A stretch of 64,000 bases of DNA from Candidatus Omnitrophota bacterium. Lineage in GTDB: Bacteria > Omnitrophota > Gorgyraeia > Zapsychrales > Zapsychraceae. The stretch is taken from assembly GCA_020429915.1 (NCBI GenBank), contig JAGQKV010000002.1:329552-393551 (forward strand), read 5' to 3'. The notes below the pieces were generated by a model. The model was given only the letters and a program-made list of their open reading frames with translations. It searched no databases and was not told where the DNA came from. Positions 230 to 20,810 of this stretch are shown here, one piece after another (position 1 is the first letter of the stretch; each line of letters opens with the position of its first letter). A program made the position numbers and the translations under genes.

Positions 230-3200
230 TTAAACCTCGTTTTCCGGCGGATTACCGGCCGCGGCTATTTCATTGTACGCCTTCAGGCGCCGGTTGACGT
301 CCGCCTGGGCCTCGCGAATGAGCTCCCGGGAGATTTCCGGTTGACTCTTGAGCAGCATTTTGTAGCGGTTTTCTTTGTATGCGTAATCCCGGAAGGAGAT
401 CTTCGGTTCTCCCGAATCCAGGACCAACGGATTTTTGCCTTCGGTTTTGAGCGTCGGGTTGTAACGGAATAACGGCCAATGTCCCGAGAGTACCGCGTCC
501 TTCTGGTTCTGCATGCCCTGGCTCATGTTGATCCCGTGAGCGATGCAGTGACTGTACGCGATAATCAATGAAGGGCCAGGGTAGCGTTCCGCTTCGAGAA
601 AGGCCTTGACGGTGTGTTCGTCTTTGGCTCCGAGCGCGACATTGGCGACATAAACGTACTCGTAGGACATGGCGATGCGCGCCAGGTCCTTTTTAGGCAT
701 CGGTTTCCCGGCCGCGGCAAACTTGGCCACCGCCGCTCTCGGCGTGGATTTGGACATTTGACCGCCCGTGTTTGAATACACCTCCGTATCGAGCACCAGG
801 ATGTTGAGGTCTTCGCCTGAGGCCATCACGTGGTCCAGTCCGCCGAAGCCGATGTCATAGGCCCAACCGTCGCCGCCGACGATCCAGACACTTTTCTTAA
901 CGAGCATATCGGCCAGACTGAGCAGCTGTCTCGCCTCAGGGGAAGCATCGTCGCGAAGCTTCTCTTTGACGGCGGCCACTCGCTGGCGCTGTTCATATAT
1001 GTCGGCCTCCTCCACTTGTTTGGCCAGGAGGAGACCCTCCACGAGATCCGTCCCTAACCGGGACTCGAATCCCCTGAGGAGTTCTCCGGCAAACTCGCGC
1101 TGCTTATTGACGGACAATCGAAATCCGAGACCGAATTCCGCATTGTCTTCGAACAAGGAGTTGGACCAGGCCGGTCCGCGCCCATCGGCATTTTTGGTCC
1201 AGGGAGTCGTCGGCAGGTTGCCGCCGTAAATCGACGAACATCCCGTCGCGTTGGCGATCAAGGCCCGGTCACCGAACAGCTGCGACATGATCTTGATGTA
1301 GGGCGTCTCCCCGCATCCGGCGCAGGCACCGGAAAATTCGAACAAGGGTTCCAGTGCTTGAATCCCGCGAATGGAATTGTGCTTTACCTTGGCGCGGTCG
1401 ATCTCCGGCAGCTTTTGAAAGAGTTCCCAGTTGGCGACTTCCTGTTCGCGCAGCGGTGCCTGAGGTTCCATATTGATGGCTTTCAGACGTGTTTCCGACT
1501 TGTTCTTGACCGGGCAGACTTCCACGCAGATGGCGCAGCCGGTGCAGTCTTCCGGCGCCACCTGAATGGTGAAGTTGTGATCCTTCAGTTCCCGGTCGCG
1601 ACACTGCGTGGTCTTGAATGTATCGGGCGCGCCGTTGAGCGCCGCAGGCTCATAAATCTTGGTCCGGATGACGGAATGCGGACAGACGGCCACACACTTC
1701 CCGCACTGGATGCATATATCCGGATCCCAGACAGGAATTTCCTGGGCGATATTGCGGCGCTCCCATTTCGCGGTCCCCGTCGGATAAGTCCCGTCATCCG
1801 GCAGGCAGCTCACCGGCAGAAGGTCACCCTGACGGGCCATCATCTTGGCGGTCACTTCGCGGACGAATTCAGGCGCCTCGGCAGCGACAGCGGGTTGAAA
1901 CTCCCGGTCGCTGGTGACCTTGGCCGGAACGTCGATCTCAAACAGATTGGCTAGCGTATGATCGACCGCTTCGAAGTTTTTCTTTACGATCTCCTCGCCT
2001 TTTTTCCCGTAGGCCTTTTGGATCTGCTCCTTAATGGCGCCGATCGCCTCGTCCTTGGGCAAGATTCCAGAAATCGCGAAGAAACATGTCTGCATAATAG
2101 TGTTGATCCGGATGCCCATGCCGGTTTCACGGGCGATCCGGTAGGCATCGATGTTGTAGAACTTGAGTTTGCGGTCGATGATGATCTGCTGCACCGGTCG
2201 CGGAAGATGTTCCCACACGGCGTCTTTGGCATACGGGCTGTTCAGCAGGAACACTCCGCCTGTATCAATCTTTTCAAGTACATCGTACTTGTCGAGAAAA
2301 TTGTACTGATGACACCCCACAAAACTCGCCCGGCTGACCAGATACGTGCTGCGGATCGGATCCGGACCGAAACGCAGGTGGGAAATAGTCATCGATCCCG
2401 ATTTTTTGGAATCATAAACGAAATAACCTTGAGCGAAATTGTCGGTGCTTTCCCCGATGATTTTAATGGAATTCTTATTGGCTCCTACGGTCCCGTCAGA
2501 ACCGAGTCCGTAAAAGATTGCGCGCACGCCGCTGGCCCCTTCTATAGTGTAGTCGGGATCATACTCCAGGCTGGTATGTGTCACATCGTCATTGATGCCG
2601 ATGGTGAAGTGATTTTTGGATTTGTCCTTCTTGAGCTCATCAAAAATCGCCTTGATCATGCCCGGCGTGAATTCTTTGGAGGATAGTCCGTAGCGGCCGC
2701 CGATGATCTTGGGCGTGACGGCAAACCGGCCCGGATTCTCGAACACGGCGTTGACTACGTCCAGGTAGAGAGGCTCTCCGGCGCTTCCCGGTTCCTTGGT
2801 ACGGTCGAGCACCGCGATCGCCCGGGTGGAATCCGGCAGACTCGTGAGCAGATCGGTTACGGAAAACGGACGGTAAAGCCGGACTTTCAGGACGCCTACT
2901 TTTTCCCCGGCCGCCGCCAAATGATCGACCGTCTCGTGCGCCGCTTCCGCACCGGACCCCATGATGATGATTACACGCTCGGCGTCCGCCGGTCCGTGAT
3001 AGTCAAACAAACGGTACTGCCGTCCGGTCAGCTTGGCAAAACGGTCCATAGTTTCCTGGACGATGCGCGGAGCTACTTCGTAGTATTTGTTGACCGTTTC
3101 CCTGGCCTGAAAGTAGACGTCTGGATTCTGGGCGGTCCCACGCAGGACCGGGCGGTCGGGTGTCAGACCGCGGCTGCGATGCGCGAACACCCACTCATCG

Positions 3201-13387: not shown

Positions 13388-16300
13388 TTACTCTTCCGCG
13401 CTGACAGAACCCTGTTGGTCCACCAGGTAGTAATCACCTTCATAATAAACCCGCCACACCGGATAATAGAAACTCCCCTCCGTATGGATCAGCTCCATTT
13501 CAGCGCCGTCTCGCATCTCGTGGATCATCCCCCGACGAACACGCCGGTCCGAGTCGGGATAGAGGTGCTTAGCGATTAAGCGCAAGGCCTGACGCTTACC
13601 GACGGGCATGTAGCTCATAGGATCCTTGACCCAGGAGACTTCCTTAAAGGCGCCGCTTTCAGCGTCGATTAAGGCGATGATGACGGTTCGCTGACGCATT
13701 TCCCGACGCATCCGGCGGCGCTCTTGACGCTGAGTCCGGTCAACCCGCTGACCTTCCTCACGCGTCAACTCGTCTCCGGATTCATTCAGCATACGCCCCT
13801 TGCGGAATCCACTGCGTAACTCCTGAACATTGTCCGCATCGACCGGCAGTTCAAACGGAATCAGATAGTAATCTCCGCGGAATCCGTCGACGAATATCGG
13901 TTTGCGCGGTATGGTCTGAACAAACAGCGCGGCAAACTCATCGTCGAACGGGACCAACTGCTCCTGCAGCCCCGTTATTGCCGCCTCAATTAATGCGAAG
14001 GCATCTTCATCAAGATGGTCCCGTACATACACATTTTTTTCCGAACCATCCTCCATTTCTACGGTCTGAAGCTGCAGGAAATTGCGCACGTGCTTTTTCA
14101 GACGCGGCACGCTGGCCACAATCGTTACCTGGCCGTTGTCATCTTGCGGTGGTTCCACTAGGGCCACGTAATGGTTGTACAACGGATCGTCCGGATTAAT
14201 TTCGGTCAGCGGCCAATAGTACATCGCAGTGAATTGATCCGCGGTGACATATGTGTCCTGACCGAGCCCCTGCGGATGCGGATCATTGATCCAGAAGCCG
14301 CAGATTCCAAAATCGGCGTTGCGGTAAGGATCGACCGTGGTTTGAATTCCTTTAATAATGACCCAATAGTCATAATTTCCGTACAAGGGAACGGCTCCCG
14401 GTATATGGACCGGATACCCGTCGACGCCGTGACCGTCGGGATTATCGCCTCCCCCTCCGGCGGGATAGGCCAGCCATTCGGCTATATCACGTAGCGCGTC
14501 CTCCAGGATAAGCCTGGCCTTTAGTCCGAAATTATAGTGAAACGGATTATATGGAGGATCAAGGTTCTGGATGGTCTGCCACAGGCCCCAGCCGTCCAGG
14601 CGCGCCAGTTCCTGATTGACAGCATAATTCATCGGCTGTCCGTACTCATATAACAGGGTCTGCATATTCATTAGCGGATCCTCCAGTTCGGGAGGCCCAT
14701 CCGGATCATCAAATCGGTTCCACCATATATATTGCAGGATCATCTTTAACACGGCCGGCCCGCTGAATTGCCTGACCGAATCGGCACCATTATCCAGGCT
14801 CTGGTGATACGGGAATTTCTCCACGTTCAATGTGAAGCCTCCCTCCACGACATAAATGGTGATAGTTTCCTGCTCGCTCAGTTGACCGTCCGTAATGGTG
14901 AAAGTCACGTCGTATTCTCCCGCGTCGCCCTTTTGCGTCTGCCAAGTGAATTTCGTATTGCCGGAGTCAAACACAGCCCCTTCAGGCAATACGTTCGCGC
15001 TGAAGGTCAGGGAATCCTCGTCCGGATCAGCGCCGGAAACTTCAAACATCAGCATCTCGCCCTCCTTCACTGTACGATCACCGATCGGGTCCAGGGCCGG
15101 CGGTGAATTGCCTGCCATCATCATGACCGTAACCGTAATCTCTTCGAAATCTGACTCGCTGCCGTCCGAGACGGAAACCGTCAGCAGATATGTCCCTGCG
15201 TCGCCTGTTTGCGGGGCGAGTATCAATGTGCTGCCGGAAAATGTCATCCAAGGCTGCCCGCCTGTCACGTTGAATGTCAGGTTATCTCCATCCGGATCAG
15301 TCGCCGTGAAGTTCAATGTTCGCGATTCTCCCTCCGCCAACATTTGATTGCCGACCGGATCGAGTTCCGGCGCCATATTCATGGGCAACGGAGTGACGAT
15401 GATGTCGAAGGTTTCCGTGTCGGTCAGATCGCCGTCACTCACATTTATGGAGACCGGATATGTGCCCGAGTCTCCAATCTGAGGAGTCAAGGTCAGCGTG
15501 GTCCCGTCAAAACTCATCCAACTTTCCGCACCGTTGAACATGAGGGTCAGACTGTCCCCGTCCAAATCACTGGCCGTAAAGGTGACATTAAGGGTCGCTC
15601 CCTCCTGGAGCGTTTGATCGGCTATCGGGTTCAGATCCGGTGCACGATTGGCTTGGGTAACCGTGATGGTAACAGTTTCCTGGTCCGTCCCCGTGTTACC
15701 GTCAGCGGCGGTGAAAGTCACCTGATAAGTTCCGGCGTCATTGTTGCCCGGAGTGCCCATAAAGGTCGTTCCGTCAAAATTCATCCAGGATTGAAGCGCC
15801 GACGTGGTCACAGTCACGGGATCTCCGTCAAGGTCGCTGGCTGATATCATAAAGCTGAGCATAGCATTTTCCGCGACCGATTTGTTACCGATCGTGGCCA
15901 GGACCGGATCGCGATTGACATTCGCCACGGTAATCTGCACGACCTCTGTGGCCGTATCCGTACCGTCGAAGATGGAAAACGTAACGTCAAAAACACCGGC
16001 GTCATTGAAGTCCGGCGTCGCGGTGAAAGTCGTGCCGACAAAGGACATGAATCCGGCCAACGGGGCCGCAGCGAATGTCAGACTGTCCCCGTCCGCATCG
16101 GAACCGGATACGTCGAAACTGAACGTGGCTCCTTCCATGGTCATTCGGTTACCGATGGGATTCAAGACCGGTGAGGTATTAGCGGTTGTTTGTACCGTAA
16201 CGGTTCCGTTGGTAATATTGTCTACGGGTGTGTTTCCTGACGCATCACTTCCGAAGTCCAGTCGTGTCAGGTTTATGGCAGATGTTCCCGGGGCCAGTGC

Positions 16301-17977
16301 CGTGAAGTTAATGACCAGCACCTGCCCGTTTGGTGCAGAAACGGCACTGAATCCGAATTGAGTGATTGCGGCTTGTCCCGGCGTGGTGAGATTTTCCACA
16401 CGCTGAAAGCCCGAGAAGGTCGAACCGTTTGATACGGAATTGGCCGTCAGAACGACAGGGTCCCAGGTGAGGGTCGTATCCACTCCGATGACATCCGCTG
16501 AATTATTGGAAAAGTCGATGGCGATATTAAACGAGTCGCCTTGCTGGACCGTGGCGCCACCCACCACCGCGTCTTGGACACCTCCTCCTGCTCCGGTTAC
16601 CGTAATGATCACCTCCTCCGAATCCATCGCTCCATTACCGTCGTCCGCGTCAAAGGTGACATTGTAGATACCGACTTGCCCAAGCGTCGGCGTCCAACTA
16701 AAGACCCCGGTCATCGGATCAAGCATGGCCCCGGCCGGCAAAGAAGTTGCCCCATAGGTCAAGCCATCGCCGTCGGCATCGGTGGCACTGAGCGTGAAGC
16801 TGAGATTCATTCCGGCCTGTACGGTCCGGCTTCCTATTGAATTCATTATAGGAGTATTGTTGGCGGGAACCTGGACTGTGACGGATCCTCCGGTGACGTT
16901 GTTGACCGGATAGGTGACGGTGTCCGTTCCAAAGTCAAGCCGGCTGAGGGTTAGGGCGGACGTTCCGGAGGCGATCGCCGTAAAATTGATTACGAAGACT
17001 TGTCCGCTGGATGCCGACACGGACGGACCGACGGAAAACTGGGCAATATTGGCTTGACCCGGCGTAGTCAGATTTTCGACATCCTGAAAGCCTGAGAAGG
17101 TCGAACCGTTCGACACGGAATTGGCCGCAAGGATGGCCGGATCCCAAGCCAGTATCGCGTCCACCCCCACCACATCCGCGACGTTATTGGAATACATGAT
17201 GGCGACGTCAAACGATTCCCCTTGACTCACCGTGGCACTGCCAACGACGGCATCATGGGCCGGGGGACCCACACGGGTAACGGTGATGGTAACGGGTGCG
17301 GAGTCAGTTCCTCCGTTACCGTCATCTACCGTAAATGTCACAACATGGAGCCCTTCGTCACCGGACTGCGGAGTCCAGCTGAAGGCGCCGGTGAAAGGGT
17401 CAATGGTTGCCATGCCCGGCAAGGGACTGGCCCCGTATGTCAAGGTATCGCCGTCCGCATCGGTTGCACTTATCGTAAAGCTGATAGCGTTCCCCACCGG
17501 CACGGATTGGCTGCCGACCGGATTAAGGACAGGAGCCGCGTTGCCGTTGTTGACCGTAACGAGACCCGCAAAGGGAATTGCGTTGGCCGGGATTGTCCCC
17601 GACGTATCCGACCCGAAGTCCAAACGGGTTACCTGCAGTTGCGAAGCTCCTGTGGGGGCGGCGGCCGACACTCTGAAGTTAAAGGTCAAAACGGTCCCGT
17701 CGGCATGGCTCATCGGAGACCCGAAGGTAAATTGCGCTATCCGGGCCTGACCCGGCACCGAAAGGTTAACGACCTTGGCGAAGGCCGCGAATTCAGCCCC
17801 GTTGTCAACGGAGTCAAGCGCCAGCACGGACGGATCGTAAACAAGCGTGGTGTCGACTGCCGAGACATCATCGACATTATTCGAAAACGCGATGGCAACG
17901 GATACGGACTGCCCTTGTTCCGCGGGAAGGTTTGTCAGTAAGGCATCCCATGCCTGCACCAAACCCGGGGACAACAT
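13388..17977 (-). CDS. Giant (at least 1529 aa) secreted multidomain protein: 3 x (cohesin-like + Ig-like/cadherin-like) modules, 4 further Ig-like repeats, and a ~550-aa C-terminal domain of unknown function
   Basis: Repeated motifs VSVAIAFSNNVDDVSAVDTTLVYDPSVLAL (cohesin-like) and NAAPVLNPVGSQSVPVGNAISFTISATDADGDTLTY (putative Ig / dystroglycan-type cadherin-like). The signal-peptide-like sequence KPNIKRIAWLLTLCGVMLSPGLVQA-WDA is encoded in frame upstream of the first ATG (see findings). Lies immediately downstream of gspD. Confidence 0.9.
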   Translation of the reverse strand: MLSPGLVQAWDALLTNLPAEQGQSVSVAIAFSNNVDDVSAVDTTLVYDPSVLALDSVDNGAEFAAFAKVVNLSVPGQARIAQFTFGSPMSHADGTVLTFNFRVSAAAPTGASQLQVTRLDFGSDTSGTIPANAIPFAGLVTVNNGNAAPVLNPVGSQSVPVGNAISFTISATDADGDTLTYGASPLPGMATIDPFTGAFSWTPQSGDEGLHVVTFTVDDGNGGTDSAPVTITVTRVGPPAHDAVVGSATVSQGESFDVAIMYSNNVADVVGVDAILAWDPAILAANSVSNGSTFSGFQDVENLTTPGQANIAQFSVGPSVSASSGQVFVINFTAIASGTSALTLSRLDFGTDTVTYPVNNVTGGSVTVQVPANNTPIMNSIGSRTVQAGMNLSFTLSATDADGDGLTYGATSLPAGAMLDPMTGVFSWTPTLGQVGIYNVTFDADDGNGAMDSEEVIITVTGAGGGVQDAVVGGATVQQGDSFNIAIDFSNNSADVIGVDTTLTWDPVVLTANSVSNGSTFSGFQRVENLTTPGQAAITQFGFSAVSAPNGQVLVINFTALAPGTSAINLTRLDFGSDASGNTPVDNITNGTVTVQTTANTSPVLNPIGNRMTMEGATFSFDVSGSDADGDSLTFAAAPLAGFMSFVGTTFTATPDFNDAGVFDVTFSIFDGTDTATEVVQITVANVNRDPVLATIGNKSVAENAMLSFMISASDLDGDPVTVTTSALQSWMNFDGTTFMGTPGNNDAGTYQVTFTAADGNTGTDQETVTITVTQANRAPDLNPIADQTLQEGATLNVTFTASDLDGDSLTLMFNGAESWMSFDGTTLTLTPQIGDSGTYPVSINVSDGDLTDTETFDIIVTPLPMNMAPELDPVGNQMLAEGESRTLNFTATDPDGDNLTFNVTGGQPWMTFSGSTLILAPQTGDAGTYLLTVSVSDGSESDFEEITVTVMMMAGNSPPALDPIGDRTVKEGEMLMFEVSGADPDEDSLTFSANVLPEGAVFDSGNTKFTWQTQKGDAGEYDVTFTITDGQLSEQETITIYVVEGGFTLNVEKFPYHQSLDNGADSVRQFSGPAVLKMILQYIWWNRFDDPDGPPELEDPLMNMQTLLYEYGQPMNYAVNQELARLDGWGLWQTIQNLDPPYNPFHYNFGLKARLILEDALRDIAEWLAYPAGGGGDNPDGHGVDGYPVHIPGAVPLYGNYDYWVIIKGIQTTVDPYRNADFGICGFWINDPHPQGLGQDTYVTADQFTAMYYWPLTEINPDDPLYNHYVALVEPPQDDNGQVTIVASVPRLKKHVRNFLQLQTVEMEDGSEKNVYVRDHLDEDAFALIEAAITGLQEQLVPFDDEFAALFVQTIPRKPIFVDGFRGDYYLIPFELPVDADNVQELRSGFRKGRMLNESGDELTREEGQRVDRTQRQERRRMRREMRQRTVIIALIDAESGAFKEVSWVKDPMSYMPVGKRQALRLIAKHLYPDSDRRVRRGMIHEMRDGAEMELIHTEGSFYYPVWRVYYEGDYYLVDQQGSVSAEE
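15922..17920 (-). repeat. Three tandem ~660-nt intragenic repeat modules (cohesin-like + Ig-like, ~220 aa each) within the giant gene; modules 2 and 3 are near-identical at the DNA level
   Basis: E.g. 16380-16560 vs 17040-17220 (cggcgtggtgagattttccacacgctgaaagcccgagaaggtcgaaccg vs cggcgtagtcagattttcgacatcctgaaagcctgagaaggtcgaaccg), roughly 85% identity by eye. These are protein-domain repeats, not CRISPR. Confidence 0.7.
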
Positions 17978-18240
17978 GACTCCGCACAGGGTGAGTAACC
18001 ATGCAATTCGTTTAATGTTAGGTTTTCCTCTCGTTTGGAGTCATCCGCGACGCCCTGGCCGGCTCCGTCATGAGCTCGCTTAGCGAACCATCCGCACGAT
18101 CCTGGACAGTATAATTGCCGGATGTGGAAAATACATTGGAAATTGTGTGGTTTTTGGAACCCGATCACGCAGCATAAATCGTTCGCAGACCGAATGCAAA
18201 GAAAATGAGAATCCGGGGAGAATTTACTGCAGCTAGACGC

Positions 18241-20460
18241 TTACTTGATAATATCGCCGACTTTAATATCGTACTTCTGATCCGTGATGGTCGCCGCGAC
18301 CAATTCGCCGCGAATCCTGGTCACTTCCAGGCTGGCGATGTATTCGGAATCGCGGTAGACATTGACCTTCTCTCCGATCATTAAAGACGTACTTTGGCTG
18401 AGGTGGATGATGACGAACGTCAAGTTCTTGTTGACGCGGCGAATGGATCCCAAGACTGCGCCGGATAGTCCATCACGATAGACGTCGTCCAAGTTTCCGT
18501 CACCGGCCTGTGCGGCCTGGGCCTTTGCCGCGAGCCTGATCCGGTCCGTGGCGATGCCGCCGGACTCATGGCCGTTACTATCTTGGGGCTGTTCCCAACG
18601 CTTGGCCGCCATATCGTAATCGTCATTATCCCCGCTAGAATAAGCCGCTCGGCTTCCGATCTCACCATTCCGGTTGTCCTGCTCATAAGCGTCTGTTGCG
18701 GACTGATGGCTATCTTTGAAAAATCGGCTCGGTTCCGGAGAGATGACCCCAACACGCTCGCGAGGCAAATATGTGGTCTGCGCGGGAATGTCTCCGGTAA
18801 TAATTTTGGGAGAAAGAAATATCACCGTCTCGGTTTTACGCACGAATTCGTCCTGACCACGAAAGGCCGCCCCGATAACCGGAATACTGCCCAGAACGGG
18901 CACTTTATTATGTGAATTGATCGTTTCATCCCGGATCAGTCCGCCGATAAAGATGGTGACGCCGTCTTTGACGGTCACCGTTGTTTCGGCCTCCGAAGTC
19001 TCGACGACCGGAATGGAATTGTTATTGCTGGTAATGACATTGCGCGTCACGGAACTGATCTCCGGCTTGACCTTCATGGTGATAAAATCGTCTCTATGGA
19101 TGGTGGGTGTGACAAACAATTTAACGCCGACTTCAATAAAATTGACGGATTCCGCTGTGGTTGTCGGCCCGGAAGCCGGCGTGGTCGTGGTGGATGTGAC
19201 ATACGGTTCGGTTGAACCCACGATAATCTTGGCCTCCTCGTTATTCAGGGTGGCGATACTCGGACTGGACAGGATATTGGTTTCCCCGATAGTTTCCAGG
19301 GCCTGGACCATAACCGCGTAATCATCCTTTTCCAGCGTACCGATGCTGAGCTGACCGCGTTTGTCTGTTGACTGCAGGACATCAAAGTTGCTGAGGAGGT
19401 TAAAATTGTGATGCTCCACCATCAGCTTTTCCCAATCCACACCCAGCTTGAACTCGTCGCTCAGGGTCACTTGCACGATCTTGGCCTCGATCAGCACTTC
19501 CAGATCTTTGTTGTCGAATGCGCGGACCATCTGGCGGATCTCGTTGAGTTTATCGGCCGTATCCGAGACGATTACCTTATTGGAACGTTTGTCCGTCCGA
19601 ACGGAGCCGATATCCGGCGTTAGCTCCTCGGTAATCTTCGCGGCGATATCTTCCGCCTCCGCGTAAACCAGGTCGAAAATCTCGGTGACAACCATTCCGT
19701 CCACCCAATTTACGATGTTTTCCATCTCATCCAACACATGCGGCTCGTCGGTCAGGATCAGCGTACTTGTCTTATCATCCGCCACCACTTTGCCGCCCGT
19801 ACTTTTCACCTGATTAAGCAAGGCAACGACGTCACCGATTTTGGCGTCTTCCAATCGTAAAATACGAGTCTCAAACTCTTGCCCGAAGGCACTGCGATAT
19901 TTGGCGAGATACTCCTCGGCCGTCATGATGTTAATGATGTTTCCGGTACGCAGAAAGGCCAGATTGTATGATTCAATAATGCTCTTGAGGGCCTCAAATA
20001 CCTCCACATTCTTAAGGTACACCGTGACTTTTCCCGAAACATTGGGGCTGACGATAATGTTGAGATCACTTTTTTGGGAGATGATCTTGATTAAATCCAG
20101 AATATCCATTTCTTTAACGTTGAGGACGTCAAAGACCATCATTTCGCTTTCCGCATCCCCATAGTTTGCCTTGACCCTGGATATATCGATCGTGCCGCTG
20201 ATTTCGGTCTTACCGTTTTGTCCGTTTTTGGCAATCTGCGTGCGGTGAAGTTCGTTGGTAATATCTCCATTGAAACGGTTTGCCGGCTGGTTCCGCTCAA
20301 TCCGCTGGATTCCGCGCAGTTGTCGGCGACCCTCGTCGAGACTATCGTTTTGAGCGTAAGCGGTTCCGGATAGCGCCGTAAACAGAACAAAAACAGGCAG
20401 AAGAAGTAGGGTGAGGTGGTATTGATTTTTGTGGTTGGGTGTTTTTTGGCATTCCTTCAT
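18241..20460 (-). CDS. gspD: Type II secretion system secretin GspD
   Basis: Signal peptide MKECQKTPNHKNQYHLTLLLLPVFVLFTALSGTAYA-Q (ATG at 20460 preferred over the track GTG at 20505); N0/N1-like domains and a secretin domain (VPVLGSIPVIGAAF); unusual ~130-aa C-terminal extension. Confidence 0.9.
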   Translation of the reverse strand: MKECQKTPNHKNQYHLTLLLLPVFVLFTALSGTAYAQNDSLDEGRRQLRGIQRIERNQPANRFNGDITNELHRTQIAKNGQNGKTEISGTIDISRVKANYGDAESEMMVFDVLNVKEMDILDLIKIISQKSDLNIIVSPNVSGKVTVYLKNVEVFEALKSIIESYNLAFLRTGNIINIMTAEEYLAKYRSAFGQEFETRILRLEDAKIGDVVALLNQVKSTGGKVVADDKTSTLILTDEPHVLDEMENIVNWVDGMVVTEIFDLVYAEAEDIAAKITEELTPDIGSVRTDKRSNKVIVSDTADKLNEIRQMVRAFDNKDLEVLIEAKIVQVTLSDEFKLGVDWEKLMVEHHNFNLLSNFDVLQSTDKRGQLSIGTLEKDDYAVMVQALETIGETNILSSPSIATLNNEEAKIIVGSTEPYVTSTTTTPASGPTTTAESVNFIEVGVKLFVTPTIHRDDFITMKVKPEISSVTRNVITSNNNSIPVVETSEAETTVTVKDGVTIFIGGLIRDETINSHNKVPVLGSIPVIGAAFRGQDEFVRKTETVIFLSPKIITGDIPAQTTYLPRERVGVISPEPSRFFKDSHQSATDAYEQDNRNGEIGSRAAYSSGDNDDYDMAAKRWEQPQDSNGHESGGIATDRIRLAAKAQAAQAGDGNLDDVYRDGLSGAVLGSIRRVNKNLTFVIIHLSQSTSLMIGEKVNVYRDSEYIASLEVTRIRGELVAATITDQKYDIKVGDIIK

Positions 20461-20810
20461 AACGGCCACCGACAAAATTAAACGCGCCAATATGGTCAGA
20501 TACACAAAATGCGTCTAAATCGACCGAGCGAAGATTGAAGGAATTAGCGGGGAAACATATTGGTCAGATATGGCTAAATCCGATCAATTCCTGTGTTTAA
20601 TTAGGGAAAACAGGATATTTACACGATATACCATAACCCGCGGCATGTCAAGCCGCCTATTTAGACTCTGAACGACACACTTTATGTCCGGGTTTGTCAG
20701 GGACTGTCCTGGATCATCCTGTATAGCTTAAACCCGCCTTGTAGGAAAACCGGCATATCCATGGGCGGTCAGCGATGAGATAATCCGTCCCGGGGCTCTC
20801 TTTCCGGCCT

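Follow-up and report, generated by a model that had tools for sequence, protein, structure and literature searches.

Where does translation of a large gene begin if the codons for its apparent export signal lie upstream of its first canonical start codon? This question is raised by a cohesin/Ig-repeat gene on the minus strand of a 64,000-nucleotide stretch of DNA from a Candidatus Omnitrophota bacterium, the whole of which is called the window below. Judging from the sequence and its relatives, the gene is quite probably translated from the AUU at 18016 through Shine-Dalgarno-directed initiation. The features discussed are collected in Table 1.

Table 1. Features of the start region and its neighbours, in window positions.
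Feature	Position	Strand	Basis and remarks
gspD-type secretin, directly upstream of the cohesin gene	18241..20505	minus	Pfam Secretin, Secretin_N, GspD N0
Upstream ORF ATG ACT CCA AAC GAG AGG AAA ACC TAA (MTPNERKT-stop)	18018..18044	minus	other frame, spans the Shine-Dalgarno block
In-frame TGA, upstream bound of the main frame	18041..18043	minus	sequence reading
Shine-Dalgarno block GAGAGGA (AGAGGAAA)	18026..18032	minus	motif position
ATT (AUU), proposed initiation codon read as fMet	18014..18016	minus	sequence and orthologue alignment
Predicted signal-peptide coding segment, 22 codons, (M)KRIAWLLTLCGVMLSPGLVQA	17951..18016	minus	simple rules; predicted cleavage after VQA
ATG-17977 and TTG-17974, public gene-caller starts; in the proposed reading internal Met14 and Leu15	17972..17977	minus	database records
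Cohesin/Ig-repeat protein gene, mature region and stop	13388..17950	minus	Pfam matches: cohesin, Big_9, He_PIG and PKD repeats

Locus, reading frame and predicted signal peptide

The secretin gene that precedes the cohesin gene is the last of a type II secretion system (T2SS) cluster with the order gspE-F-pseudopilin-K-L/M-D; genes E, F, K and M and the pseudopilins lie upstream of gspD, whose start is put by public callers at ATG-20460. The order of secretin and then adhesin is kept in four lineages (the window, L001, L009 and L014), and because of this conserved position behind gspD the cohesin/Ig-repeat protein can reasonably be regarded as a probable T2SS cargo. When read from the ATT it joins a Sec-type N-terminal signal to T2SS linkage, as a type II secretion substrate would. 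The product is of about 1540 residues if read from ATT-18016 (1542 codons are open in the window), and its cohesin domain, as delimited by Pfam, starts directly after the predicted cleavage site.

After TGA-18043 the main frame runs through 21 codons without ATG, GTG or TTG up to ATG-17977. The minus-strand codons following the TGA are CTC CAA ACG AGA GGA AAA CCT AAC ATT(18016) AAA CGA ATT(18007), then GCA TGG TTA CTC ACC CTG(17989) TGC GGA GTC ATG(17977) TTG TCC CCG and, up to the cleavage site, GGT TTG GTG CAG GCA, with TGG GAT GCC behind it; they are translated as LQTRGKPN-IKRIAWLLTLCGVMLSPGLVQA/WDA, where the slash marks the predicted cleavage. Counted from ATT-18016, the n-region is MKR (+2) and is followed by 19 uncharged residues, with V-x-A at -3/-1, P-G at -6/-5 and a maximum 8-residue Kyte-Doolittle value of 2.36. 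By these simple rules (charge, hydrophobicity and -3/-1 residues, not SignalP) the segment has the features of a Sec signal peptide cleaved by signal peptidase I, and the mature N-terminus expected after VQA cleavage would be WDALLTNLPAEQGQ... A like layout is found in L001, L009 and L014 and in distant homologues, and this conservation, in three orthologues and in distant homologues, makes the predicted signal peptide more than a chance feature. A start at ATG-17977 leaves nine residues (MLSPGLVQA) with no h-region. A lipoprotein (SPase II) signal was considered and rejected: the lipobox L-[ASTVI]-[GAS]-C is not matched, the conserved LCG having Leu at -1 (LTLC, FILC, LILC), and the Cys is residue 11 counted from ATT-18016, which makes the leader too short.

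From the Shine-Dalgarno block to the conserved K-R of the n-region, ATT-18016 is the sole near-cognate codon. AGGA ends 9 nt and GAGG 10 nt upstream of it. The distance from Shine-Dalgarno core to start is 5-11 nt in the other genes of the window, and GAGG stands 9 nt before the ATG in L014 and L016, so that by the spacing of both the family and the genome the AUU lies at a functional distance. At 9-10 nt, the spacing is towards the upper limit of the range. Among 48 window ORFs the cohesin gene is the only one in which a near-cognate codon preceded by a Shine-Dalgarno sequence lies well before the canonical start; infC and tRNA genes were looked for within the window as a comparison and none were found. 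A preliminary description of this DNA had reported the lack of in-frame ATG, GTG and TTG between TGA-18043 and ATG-17977, a Sec signal peptide with a VQA site in the upstream codons and a Shine-Dalgarno sequence about 10 nt before ATT-18016. The first was reproduced by re-reading the sequence, the second is supported by the simple rules and by homologues, and the third agrees with the distances given above; GGAG, which it had placed 3 nt before ATG-17977, was measured at 2 nt.

Conservation of the start region among relatives

Orthologues were recovered by a full-length query together with an exhaustive phmmer search. When the N-terminal 253 aa served as the protein query, all matches were Ig-repeat ones of similar length and the orthologues were not among them, and the JGI metagenome collection, scanned with the N-terminal alignment and with the secretin, gave no matches.

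Across the start region the window sequence recurs without change in seven other contigs, which come from at least three metagenome samples: six of them (L003-L008) represent three samples, with two assembly pipelines each, and L013 is the seventh. The organism occurs in the samples SAMN08389248, SAMN08389258 and SAMN08389223. The sister lineage OMNI-4, with a secretin 94% identical to that of the window, is known from independent assemblies, L001/L011 (NCBI) and L012 (Logan), both of which retain ATT AAA CGA ATT. The ATT is carried by the window lineage (8 contigs) and by the OMNI-4 lineage (2 assemblies). It is common to only two close lineages, possibly three. In OMNI-4 (L001) ATG-17977 is replaced by ATT and TTG-17974 by CTT, and the GGAG before the former reads GGTG; no canonical start follows in frame until a GTG 63 codons downstream, inside the cohesin domain, and starting there would delete about 40 residues of this domain. 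Neither in the window nor in L001 does a canonical start explain the conserved N-terminal coding sequence.

The substitutions in the signal-peptide codons follow the pattern of a coding region. Between the window and L001 their dN/dS is 0.28, and that of the next 378 codons is 0.27. The main frame of this segment holds 7 synonymous and 6-7 conservative changes, compared with synonymous to nonsynonymous ratios of 2:8 and 0:11 in its other two frames and of about 4:13 in all frames of the intergenic DNA upstream. The 48-nt block 18049-17997 differs from L001 at one position and is among the top 6% most conserved windows.

A more distant syntenic orthologue, L014 (secretin 65% and N-terminus 43% identical), reads AAGAGGAAAtcacaaATG AGA AAA, with an ATG in the ATT-18016 column behind the same AGAGGAAA block, 6 nt from this block (9 nt counted from GAGG), and this ATG start yields a 22-residue signal peptide. 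Other homologues with a signal peptide and cohesin domain begin MKK or MRK in the same column, and signal peptides are of 22-23 aa in relatives. The AUU is conserved and positionally homologous to the canonical starts of relatives; L009 is ambiguous in this respect, its frame being open further upstream with canonical ATGs, and it therefore can do without an AUU start and gives no proof of one. L010 has a secretin 73% identical and is uninformative because the gene behind it encodes another cargo (LTD/CotH), whose ATG and signal peptide are normal.

The alignments suggest the following course of events. The AGAGGA Shine-Dalgarno sequence, 9-10 nt upstream, would position the 30S subunit at the AUU 18016-18014, where the initiator tRNA would insert fMet, and the product would begin MKRIAWLLTLCGVMLSPGLVQA. 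After Sec-dependent transport and signal peptidase I cleavage behind VQA the cohesin domain would head the mature protein in the periplasm, from which the adjacent T2SS probably exports it. The AUU would be a replacement of an ancestral AUG, retained in at least two species-level lineages. We infer from this comparison that AUU-18016 is the codon actually used. By analogy with infC and pcnB, an AUU start may lower expression or make it IF3-dependent; the IF3 response of AUU-start expression is described from E. coli work (PMC5499595, PMC9723500).

Other start sites and upstream elements

Three differing start calls are on record for the gene, namely ATG-17977 and TTG-17974, with products of 1529 aa and 1528 aa, and an internal GTG (NCBI record). 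All three are most likely wrong, and each loses the signal peptide. Because translation most likely starts at the AUU, the export signal appears to be cut off in public annotations, and localisation surveys, including those on large Omnitrophota proteins, would misclassify the protein as signal-peptide-free.

Initiation at ATT-18007, CTG-17989, ATG-17977 or TTG-17974 is improbable. It would truncate or remove the signal peptide, and the protein would remain cytoplasmic or leave by a different export route. ATG-17977 and TTG-17974 are canonical codons chosen by gene callers, and GGAG stands just before the former, but the distance between the two is only 2 nt, the resulting MLSPGLVQA has no h-region, and codons and GGAG alike are lost in L001. 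Synonymous changes and the conserved K-R n-region upstream of ATG-17977 also speak against it, and ATT-18007 lies 18-19 nt from the Shine-Dalgarno sequence and would lose the basic n-region. The uncleaved N-terminus expected if the start were Met14 (ATG-17977) is MLSPGLVQAWDA...

The short upstream ORF offers two further possibilities. It has 8 codons, stops 1 nt before ATT-18016 and has the counterpart MTPNERKN-stop in L001. Since it abuts the AUU, coupled or frameshift mechanisms are possible as minor alternatives. In a programmed +1 frameshift of the prfB type, translation would start at ATG-18044, an SD-like GAGG lying 3 nt upstream would stimulate a slip at ACC-TAA-C (18023-18017) to the main frame, and the product would begin MTPNERKTNIKRIAWLL... 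The layout GAGG-AAA-ACC-TAA-C, with a stop at the shift site and an SD-like element, resembles the RF2 (prfB) cassette AGGGGG-UAU-CUU-UGA-C, and a canonical AUG would come from the ORF, which both the window and L001 have. Nevertheless there is only a slight chance that such a shift takes place. The conserved block has one substitution, and this falls in the P-site codon, which is ACC in the window and AAC in L001; neither re-pairs well in the +1 frame without a mismatch, so that conserved re-pairing is missing. Both release factors recognise the stop, UAA. L014 uses the same Shine-Dalgarno block for ordinary ATG initiation in the ATT column, and the 22-23 aa signal peptides of homologues show no such extension. 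ORFs beginning with ATG abut the start of 7 of the 48 window genes in the same test, and ATG-18044 itself is preceded only by a weak AGGG. The peptide MTPNERKTNIKR... is a product not expected under the AUU-18016 start.

It is also conceivable, albeit doubtful, that the AUU and the 8-codon ORF form one regulatory device, by which adhesin synthesis would depend on termination-reinitiation or on IF3 availability; if so, production of a costly secreted protein would be tied to the translational state of the cell. L014 and L015 likewise have short upstream ORFs that overlap the main start (ATGA), and because these end on the main start the coupling might be ancestral to the gene family.

Several other elements of the leader were considered. 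A -1 frameshift from ORF 17935-18168 was rejected, with no slippery heptamer and with non-coding-like upstream substitutions in all frames, as was read-through of TGA-18043, upstream of which there are further in-frame stops and no start. An Rfam search of the leader returned no known RNA family, and the initiation region does not fold significantly (z -0.66 and -1.87); the hairpin predicted in both lineages, whose loop holds the AUU, is not relied on. A scan for promoters and terminators yielded neither a terminator behind gspD nor, by its criteria, a promoter on the minus strand. A promoter candidate seen by eye, TTGCAT-17-TATGCT (TATAAT in L001), is below the scan threshold.

That the gene is a decaying pseudogene, its ATG mutated to ATT and its expression lost, is very improbable. 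Gene decay often begins with loss of the canonical start, but since the split of the window and OMNI-4 lineages, both with ATT, the whole cohesin gene has evolved at a dN/dS of 0.18 with a dS of 0.43 (window versus L001), and the dN/dS of the signal peptide is 0.28, as stated above. The ORFs of the cohesin gene are intact in three lineages, with 1542 codons open in the window and 1982 in OMNI-4.

The preliminary description had left a choice between a rare AUU start and an error or frameshift in the sequence. The AUU option is supported by the ATG-free sister lineage, the coding-type substitutions and the ATG of L014 in the ATT column. A sequencing or assembly error (ATG to ATT, or a frameshift at the start), for which nothing speaks except the oddity itself, has a practically negligible probability and is refuted by the exact match of L003-L008 (three samples, two assemblers each) and L013 and by the ATT that L001/L011 and L012 carry independently.

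Relation to known non-canonical starts

To our knowledge, confirmed natural bacterial AUU starts are very few, namely those of E. coli infC and pcnB, and AUU is almost never called by annotation pipelines. The cohesin gene would be a new natural example of this known, rare mode of initiation, which makes it an incremental finding and not a new mechanism. What is added is a conserved candidate AUU start from an uncultivated phylum, in the gene of a secreted adhesin-like protein linked to a T2SS, and a comparative recipe for such starts: a conserved Shine-Dalgarno block, a near-cognate codon in the Met column of homologues and synonymous substitutions in the codons before the first canonical start.

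The precedents infC and pcnB are subject to IF3 discrimination (PMC5499595; bioRxiv 10.1101/063800; PMC3592434), and the activity of AUU in E. coli ranges from about 1-3% (in vivo reporters) to about 15% (6-8 times lower) of that of AUG (10.1101/063800; PMC3592434). In infC, which encodes IF3, the AUU start lies 3 nt after the thrS stop, UAA GGU AUU (PMC5499595; PMC3592434). The cohesin gene resembles it in having an AUU behind a Shine-Dalgarno sequence, a stop shortly before the AUU (here UAA C AUU) and conservation of the AUU across lineages (PMC5499595; PMC3592434). In contrast to infC, where the AUU serves autoregulation by the gene's own product IF3, the cohesin gene encodes a structural protein that is secreted, and it follows an ORF of 8 codons. 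The output of pcnB, encoding poly(A) polymerase I, is thought to be kept low by its inefficient AUU (Binns & Masters 2002, as cited in PMC5499595). Like pcnB, the cohesin gene would be a gene for a non-regulatory factor with an AUU start; pcnB, however, encodes a cytoplasmic enzyme whose start was mapped experimentally, whereas the start of the cohesin gene is proposed from comparison. In Streptomyces sigR a GTC start is repressed by IF3 (PMC5472188). In both cases one specific gene has kept a non-canonical start, for which control through IF3 is the rationale proposed, but the codon is different and sigR is a regulatory protein with experimental proof.

Within the phylum, large and giant surface proteins of Omnitrophota are described in two reports as encoded behind T2SS-like loci (bioRxiv 10.1101/2023.11.21.568195; 10.64898/2026.06.07.730766). 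Text searches of both reports gave no mention of non-canonical start codons. The present locus has the same arrangement, with gspD/E/F-type genes and then a large repeat protein that carries cohesin/dockerin-type and Ig-like adhesion domains; it differs in that the window protein has about 1.5 k residues and not 10 k or more.

Reading frame and predicted signal peptide

The protein considered here carries cohesin, Big_9, He_PIG, cadherin-like and PKD domains (Pfam), and its gene directly follows that of the GspD secretin, the last gene of a type II secretion system (T2SS) cluster with GspE, GspF, pseudopilins, GspK and PilM/N/O-like genes. From the Omnitrophota phylum, T2SS-like loci followed by genes for large surface proteins have been described (bioRxiv 10.1101/2023.11.21.568195; 10.64898/2026.06.07.730766). 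The closest genome is that of Candidatus Omnitrophota MAG HK-STAS-OMNI-4 (secretin 94% identical). Orthologues share their flanks (gspD upstream, a response regulator and hypF downstream) and are far apart in length, because the numbers of He_PIG/Big_9 repeat modules vary. In a related Omnitrophota contig, L010 (secretin 73% identical), gspD is followed by the gene for a different large secreted protein with LTD/CotH domains, a normal ATG and a signal peptide, which suggests an exchange of cargo genes downstream of a T2SS that is itself conserved. The secretin's longest ORF starts at GTG-20505 (754 aa); the public callers' ATG-20460 gives 739 aa, MKECQKTPNHKNQYHLTLLLLPVFVLFTALSGTAYA/QND (slashes mark predicted cleavage sites), with an unusually long polar n-region ahead of the signal peptide.

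The frame of the adhesin gene is open upstream as far as TGA 18043-18041, and ATG, GTG and TTG are absent from the 21 codons between this stop and ATG-17977, which bears out the preliminary description of a signal peptide encoded in frame upstream of the first ATG without a canonical start. These codons are translated as LQTRGKPN-IKRIAWLLTLCGV, followed by MLSPGLVQA/WDA. Counted from ATT-18016, the predicted signal peptide has 22 residues, comprising an MKR n-region (+2), 19 uncharged residues, a P-G turn at -6/-5 and V-x-A at -3/-1, and the first cohesin domain begins directly after the predicted cleavage site; MLSPGLVQA, all that ATG-17977 leaves, cannot serve as a signal peptide. Besides the GAGAGGA motif ahead of ATT-18016, a GGAG precedes ATG-17977 at a short distance, as had been described, the spacing being 2 nt rather than 3. 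A GTG-started ORF in another frame, open in the OMNI-4 locus L001 too, overlaps the leader and signal-peptide region; its 4 synonymous versus 12-16 nonsynonymous substitutions are a non-coding pattern, and it is probably spurious.

Table. Features of the adhesin locus and its relatives (window positions unless a locus is named)
Feature	Position	Strand	Remarks
Public start call	ATG-17977	minus	1529 aa; ORF 13388-17977, 1529 codons
Public start call	TTG-17974	minus	1528 aa, MSPGLVQA..
Public start call, OMNI-4	internal GTG		1919 aa, NCBI 'tandem-95 repeat protein', MLTLDSVDNG..
GAGAGGA motif	18032-18026	minus	9-10 nt ahead of ATT-18016
Upstream ORF MTPNERKT, stop	ATG-18044 to TAA-18020/18018	minus	8 codons, traverses SD, ends 1 nt before AUU; found in L001
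Short upstream ORF	L014 1289-1330		through SD, overlaps main start as ATGA
Short upstream ORF	L015 ~2451-2504		through SD, overlaps main start as ATGA
ORF in another frame	17935-18168	minus	77 codons
Intergenic leader, gspD-adhesin	18044-18240	minus	197 nt, 88.7% identical to L001
Sigma-70-like TTGCAT-17-TATGCT	about 18197-18169		weak, by eye; TATAAT in L001
Identical run	18236-18360	minus	125 nt, 100% identical to L001; gspD last ~40 codons and stop
GspD secretin gene	18241-20505	minus
Adhesin ORF	13388-18016		1542 codons
Orthologue, OMNI-4	L001 12490-18438		1982 codons
Orthologue, intermediate	L009 4657-10221		1854 codons
AGGAA and ATT	L009 4657-4690		ATT 6 nt after AGGAA
Post-gspD gene	L010 3994-8115		LTD/CotH protein

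Conservation of the start region

The OMNI-4 lineage is present in two independent assemblies (NCBI, L001/L011; Logan, L012), and its start region reads TGA CTC CAA ACG AGA GGA AAA ACT AAC ATT AAA CGA ATT GCA TGG, followed by TTC TTC ATC CTG TGT GGT GTC ATT CTT TCT CCA GGT TCG GTC CTG GCT / TGG GAT. ATT AAA CGA ATT is thus retained, ATT stands at the window's ATG-17977 and GGTG at its GGAG, and a canonical start first appears in this frame 63 codons further down, as a GTG within the cohesin domain. Over the 22 signal-peptide codons the main frame shows 7 synonymous and 6-7 conservative changes, the other two frames 2:8 and 0:11 (synonymous:nonsynonymous), and the intergenic DNA upstream about 4:13 whichever frame is read; dN/dS is 0.28, equal to that of the next 378 codons (0.27). 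The 48-nt block spanning the Shine-Dalgarno (SD) motif and ATT differs from L001 at one base and ranks, by conservation, in the top 6% of windows over 3.2 kb.

Conservation of the leader greatly exceeds that of synonymous sites in the flanking genes (pS about 0.33). Rfam had no match for it, its predicted folding was not significant, and the promoter scan did not report the sigma-70-like element. The identical run, with zero synonymous changes in about 41 codons (background 89.5% identity, dS about 0.43), could serve the adhesin gene as an internal promoter or RNA element; alternatively, it could stem from recent recombination.

With the N-terminal 159 residues as query, exhaustive phmmer searching recovered the distant homologue P0280, whose locus L014 is syntenic (secretin, then a cohesin/Big_9/He_PIG gene; secretin 65% and N-terminus 43% identical to the window). 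P0280 begins MRKFLGIMIFSMVMMLPGYAAA/LDATVDSLSA..FSNNVDDVFAVDTTL, a signal peptide of 22 residues whose Met is aligned exactly with ATT-18016; at the DNA level, AAGAGGAAAtcacaaATG AGA AAA corresponds to cgAGAGGAAAAcctaacATT AAA CGA in the window, with the same SD block and position, and the L014 start is canonical. Other homologues with signal peptide and cohesin start at the ATT-18016 column or one codon earlier (MKKFLGF.., MKKTLFT.., MKKILFL.., MIKRFL...), their SD cores 8-9 nt from ATG. Because of these shared columns and similar SD blocks, ATT-18016 is, as judged from the alignments, homologous in position to the AUG of ordinary starts and lies within a conserved initiation region.

The intermediate orthologue L009 (secretin 79% identical; ..FKKRLWLLILCGAVGCPGLAQA/FTAD) does not decide the start question, since it could use either start: the open frame extends further upstream and includes canonical ATGs there (public call MPIAIGISIFKKR..), and AGGAA is kept at the homologous place, with an in-frame ATT downstream of the publicly called ATG. 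Initiation there would give MFKKRLWLL..., and L009 may also use an ATT start.

Alternative readings

A prfB-type +1 frameshift from the upstream ORF, whose layout mimics the prfB cassette (SD-like block, 3 nt, codon, stop, C), is improbable, because the would-be shift codon holds the sole base differing between the lineages (ACC vs AAC) and re-pairs poorly, the stop there is UAA, and in L014 the same SD serves ordinary initiation. Were translation to start elsewhere, ATT-18007 would lie 18-19 nt from the SD and lose the basic n-region, and CTG-17989 or ATG-17977 would lose the h-region. The sequence error or frameshift considered earlier, and with it an assembly error, is ruled out: the exact 1529-aa product occurs on six ENA contigs (three samples, two pipelines each), and these and the 387-kb contig L013 match the window base for base throughout the start region (the 1528-aa variant call occurs in 45 blocks of the collection). 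Nor is the adhesin gene a pseudogene; it is a working gene, given whole-gene dN/dS of 0.18 at dS 0.43 and intact ORFs in all three orthologues.

Proposed AUU initiation and known systems

The best-supported reading is that the SD would direct initiation, with fMet, to AUU at ATT-18016; the ATT kept in OMNI-4, the coding-type substitutions and the canonical ATG of L014 make this rare start, one of the two options raised at the outset, likely. Within the 64-kb window this is the only gene in which a near-cognate codon with an SD before it lies well ahead of the first canonical start, and as far as can be seen the feature is gene-specific. The signal peptide is absent from all three publicly called products, each with a different start; the relevance for annotation is clear, and the biological interest modest.

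AUU is discriminated against by initiation factor IF3 and is the basis of infC autoregulation; in E. coli it reaches roughly 1-3% of AUG activity when measured with in vivo reporters, and up to about 15%, a value 6-8 times below AUG, and expression of E. coli pcnB is limited by AUU (PMC5499595; bioRxiv 10.1101/063800; PMC3592434). By analogy, a throttled or IF3-sensitive supply of the large secreted protein is plausible. Translational coupling of the upstream ORF to the AUU start is possible; of the window's 48 gene starts, 7 have a comparable abutting upstream ORF that begins with ATG. The AUU start would be a new natural example of a known, rare class, and its junction, TAAcATT in both the window and L001, resembles that of infC, UAA GGU AUU, at which reinitiation accounts for about half of the initiation events (PMC3592434).
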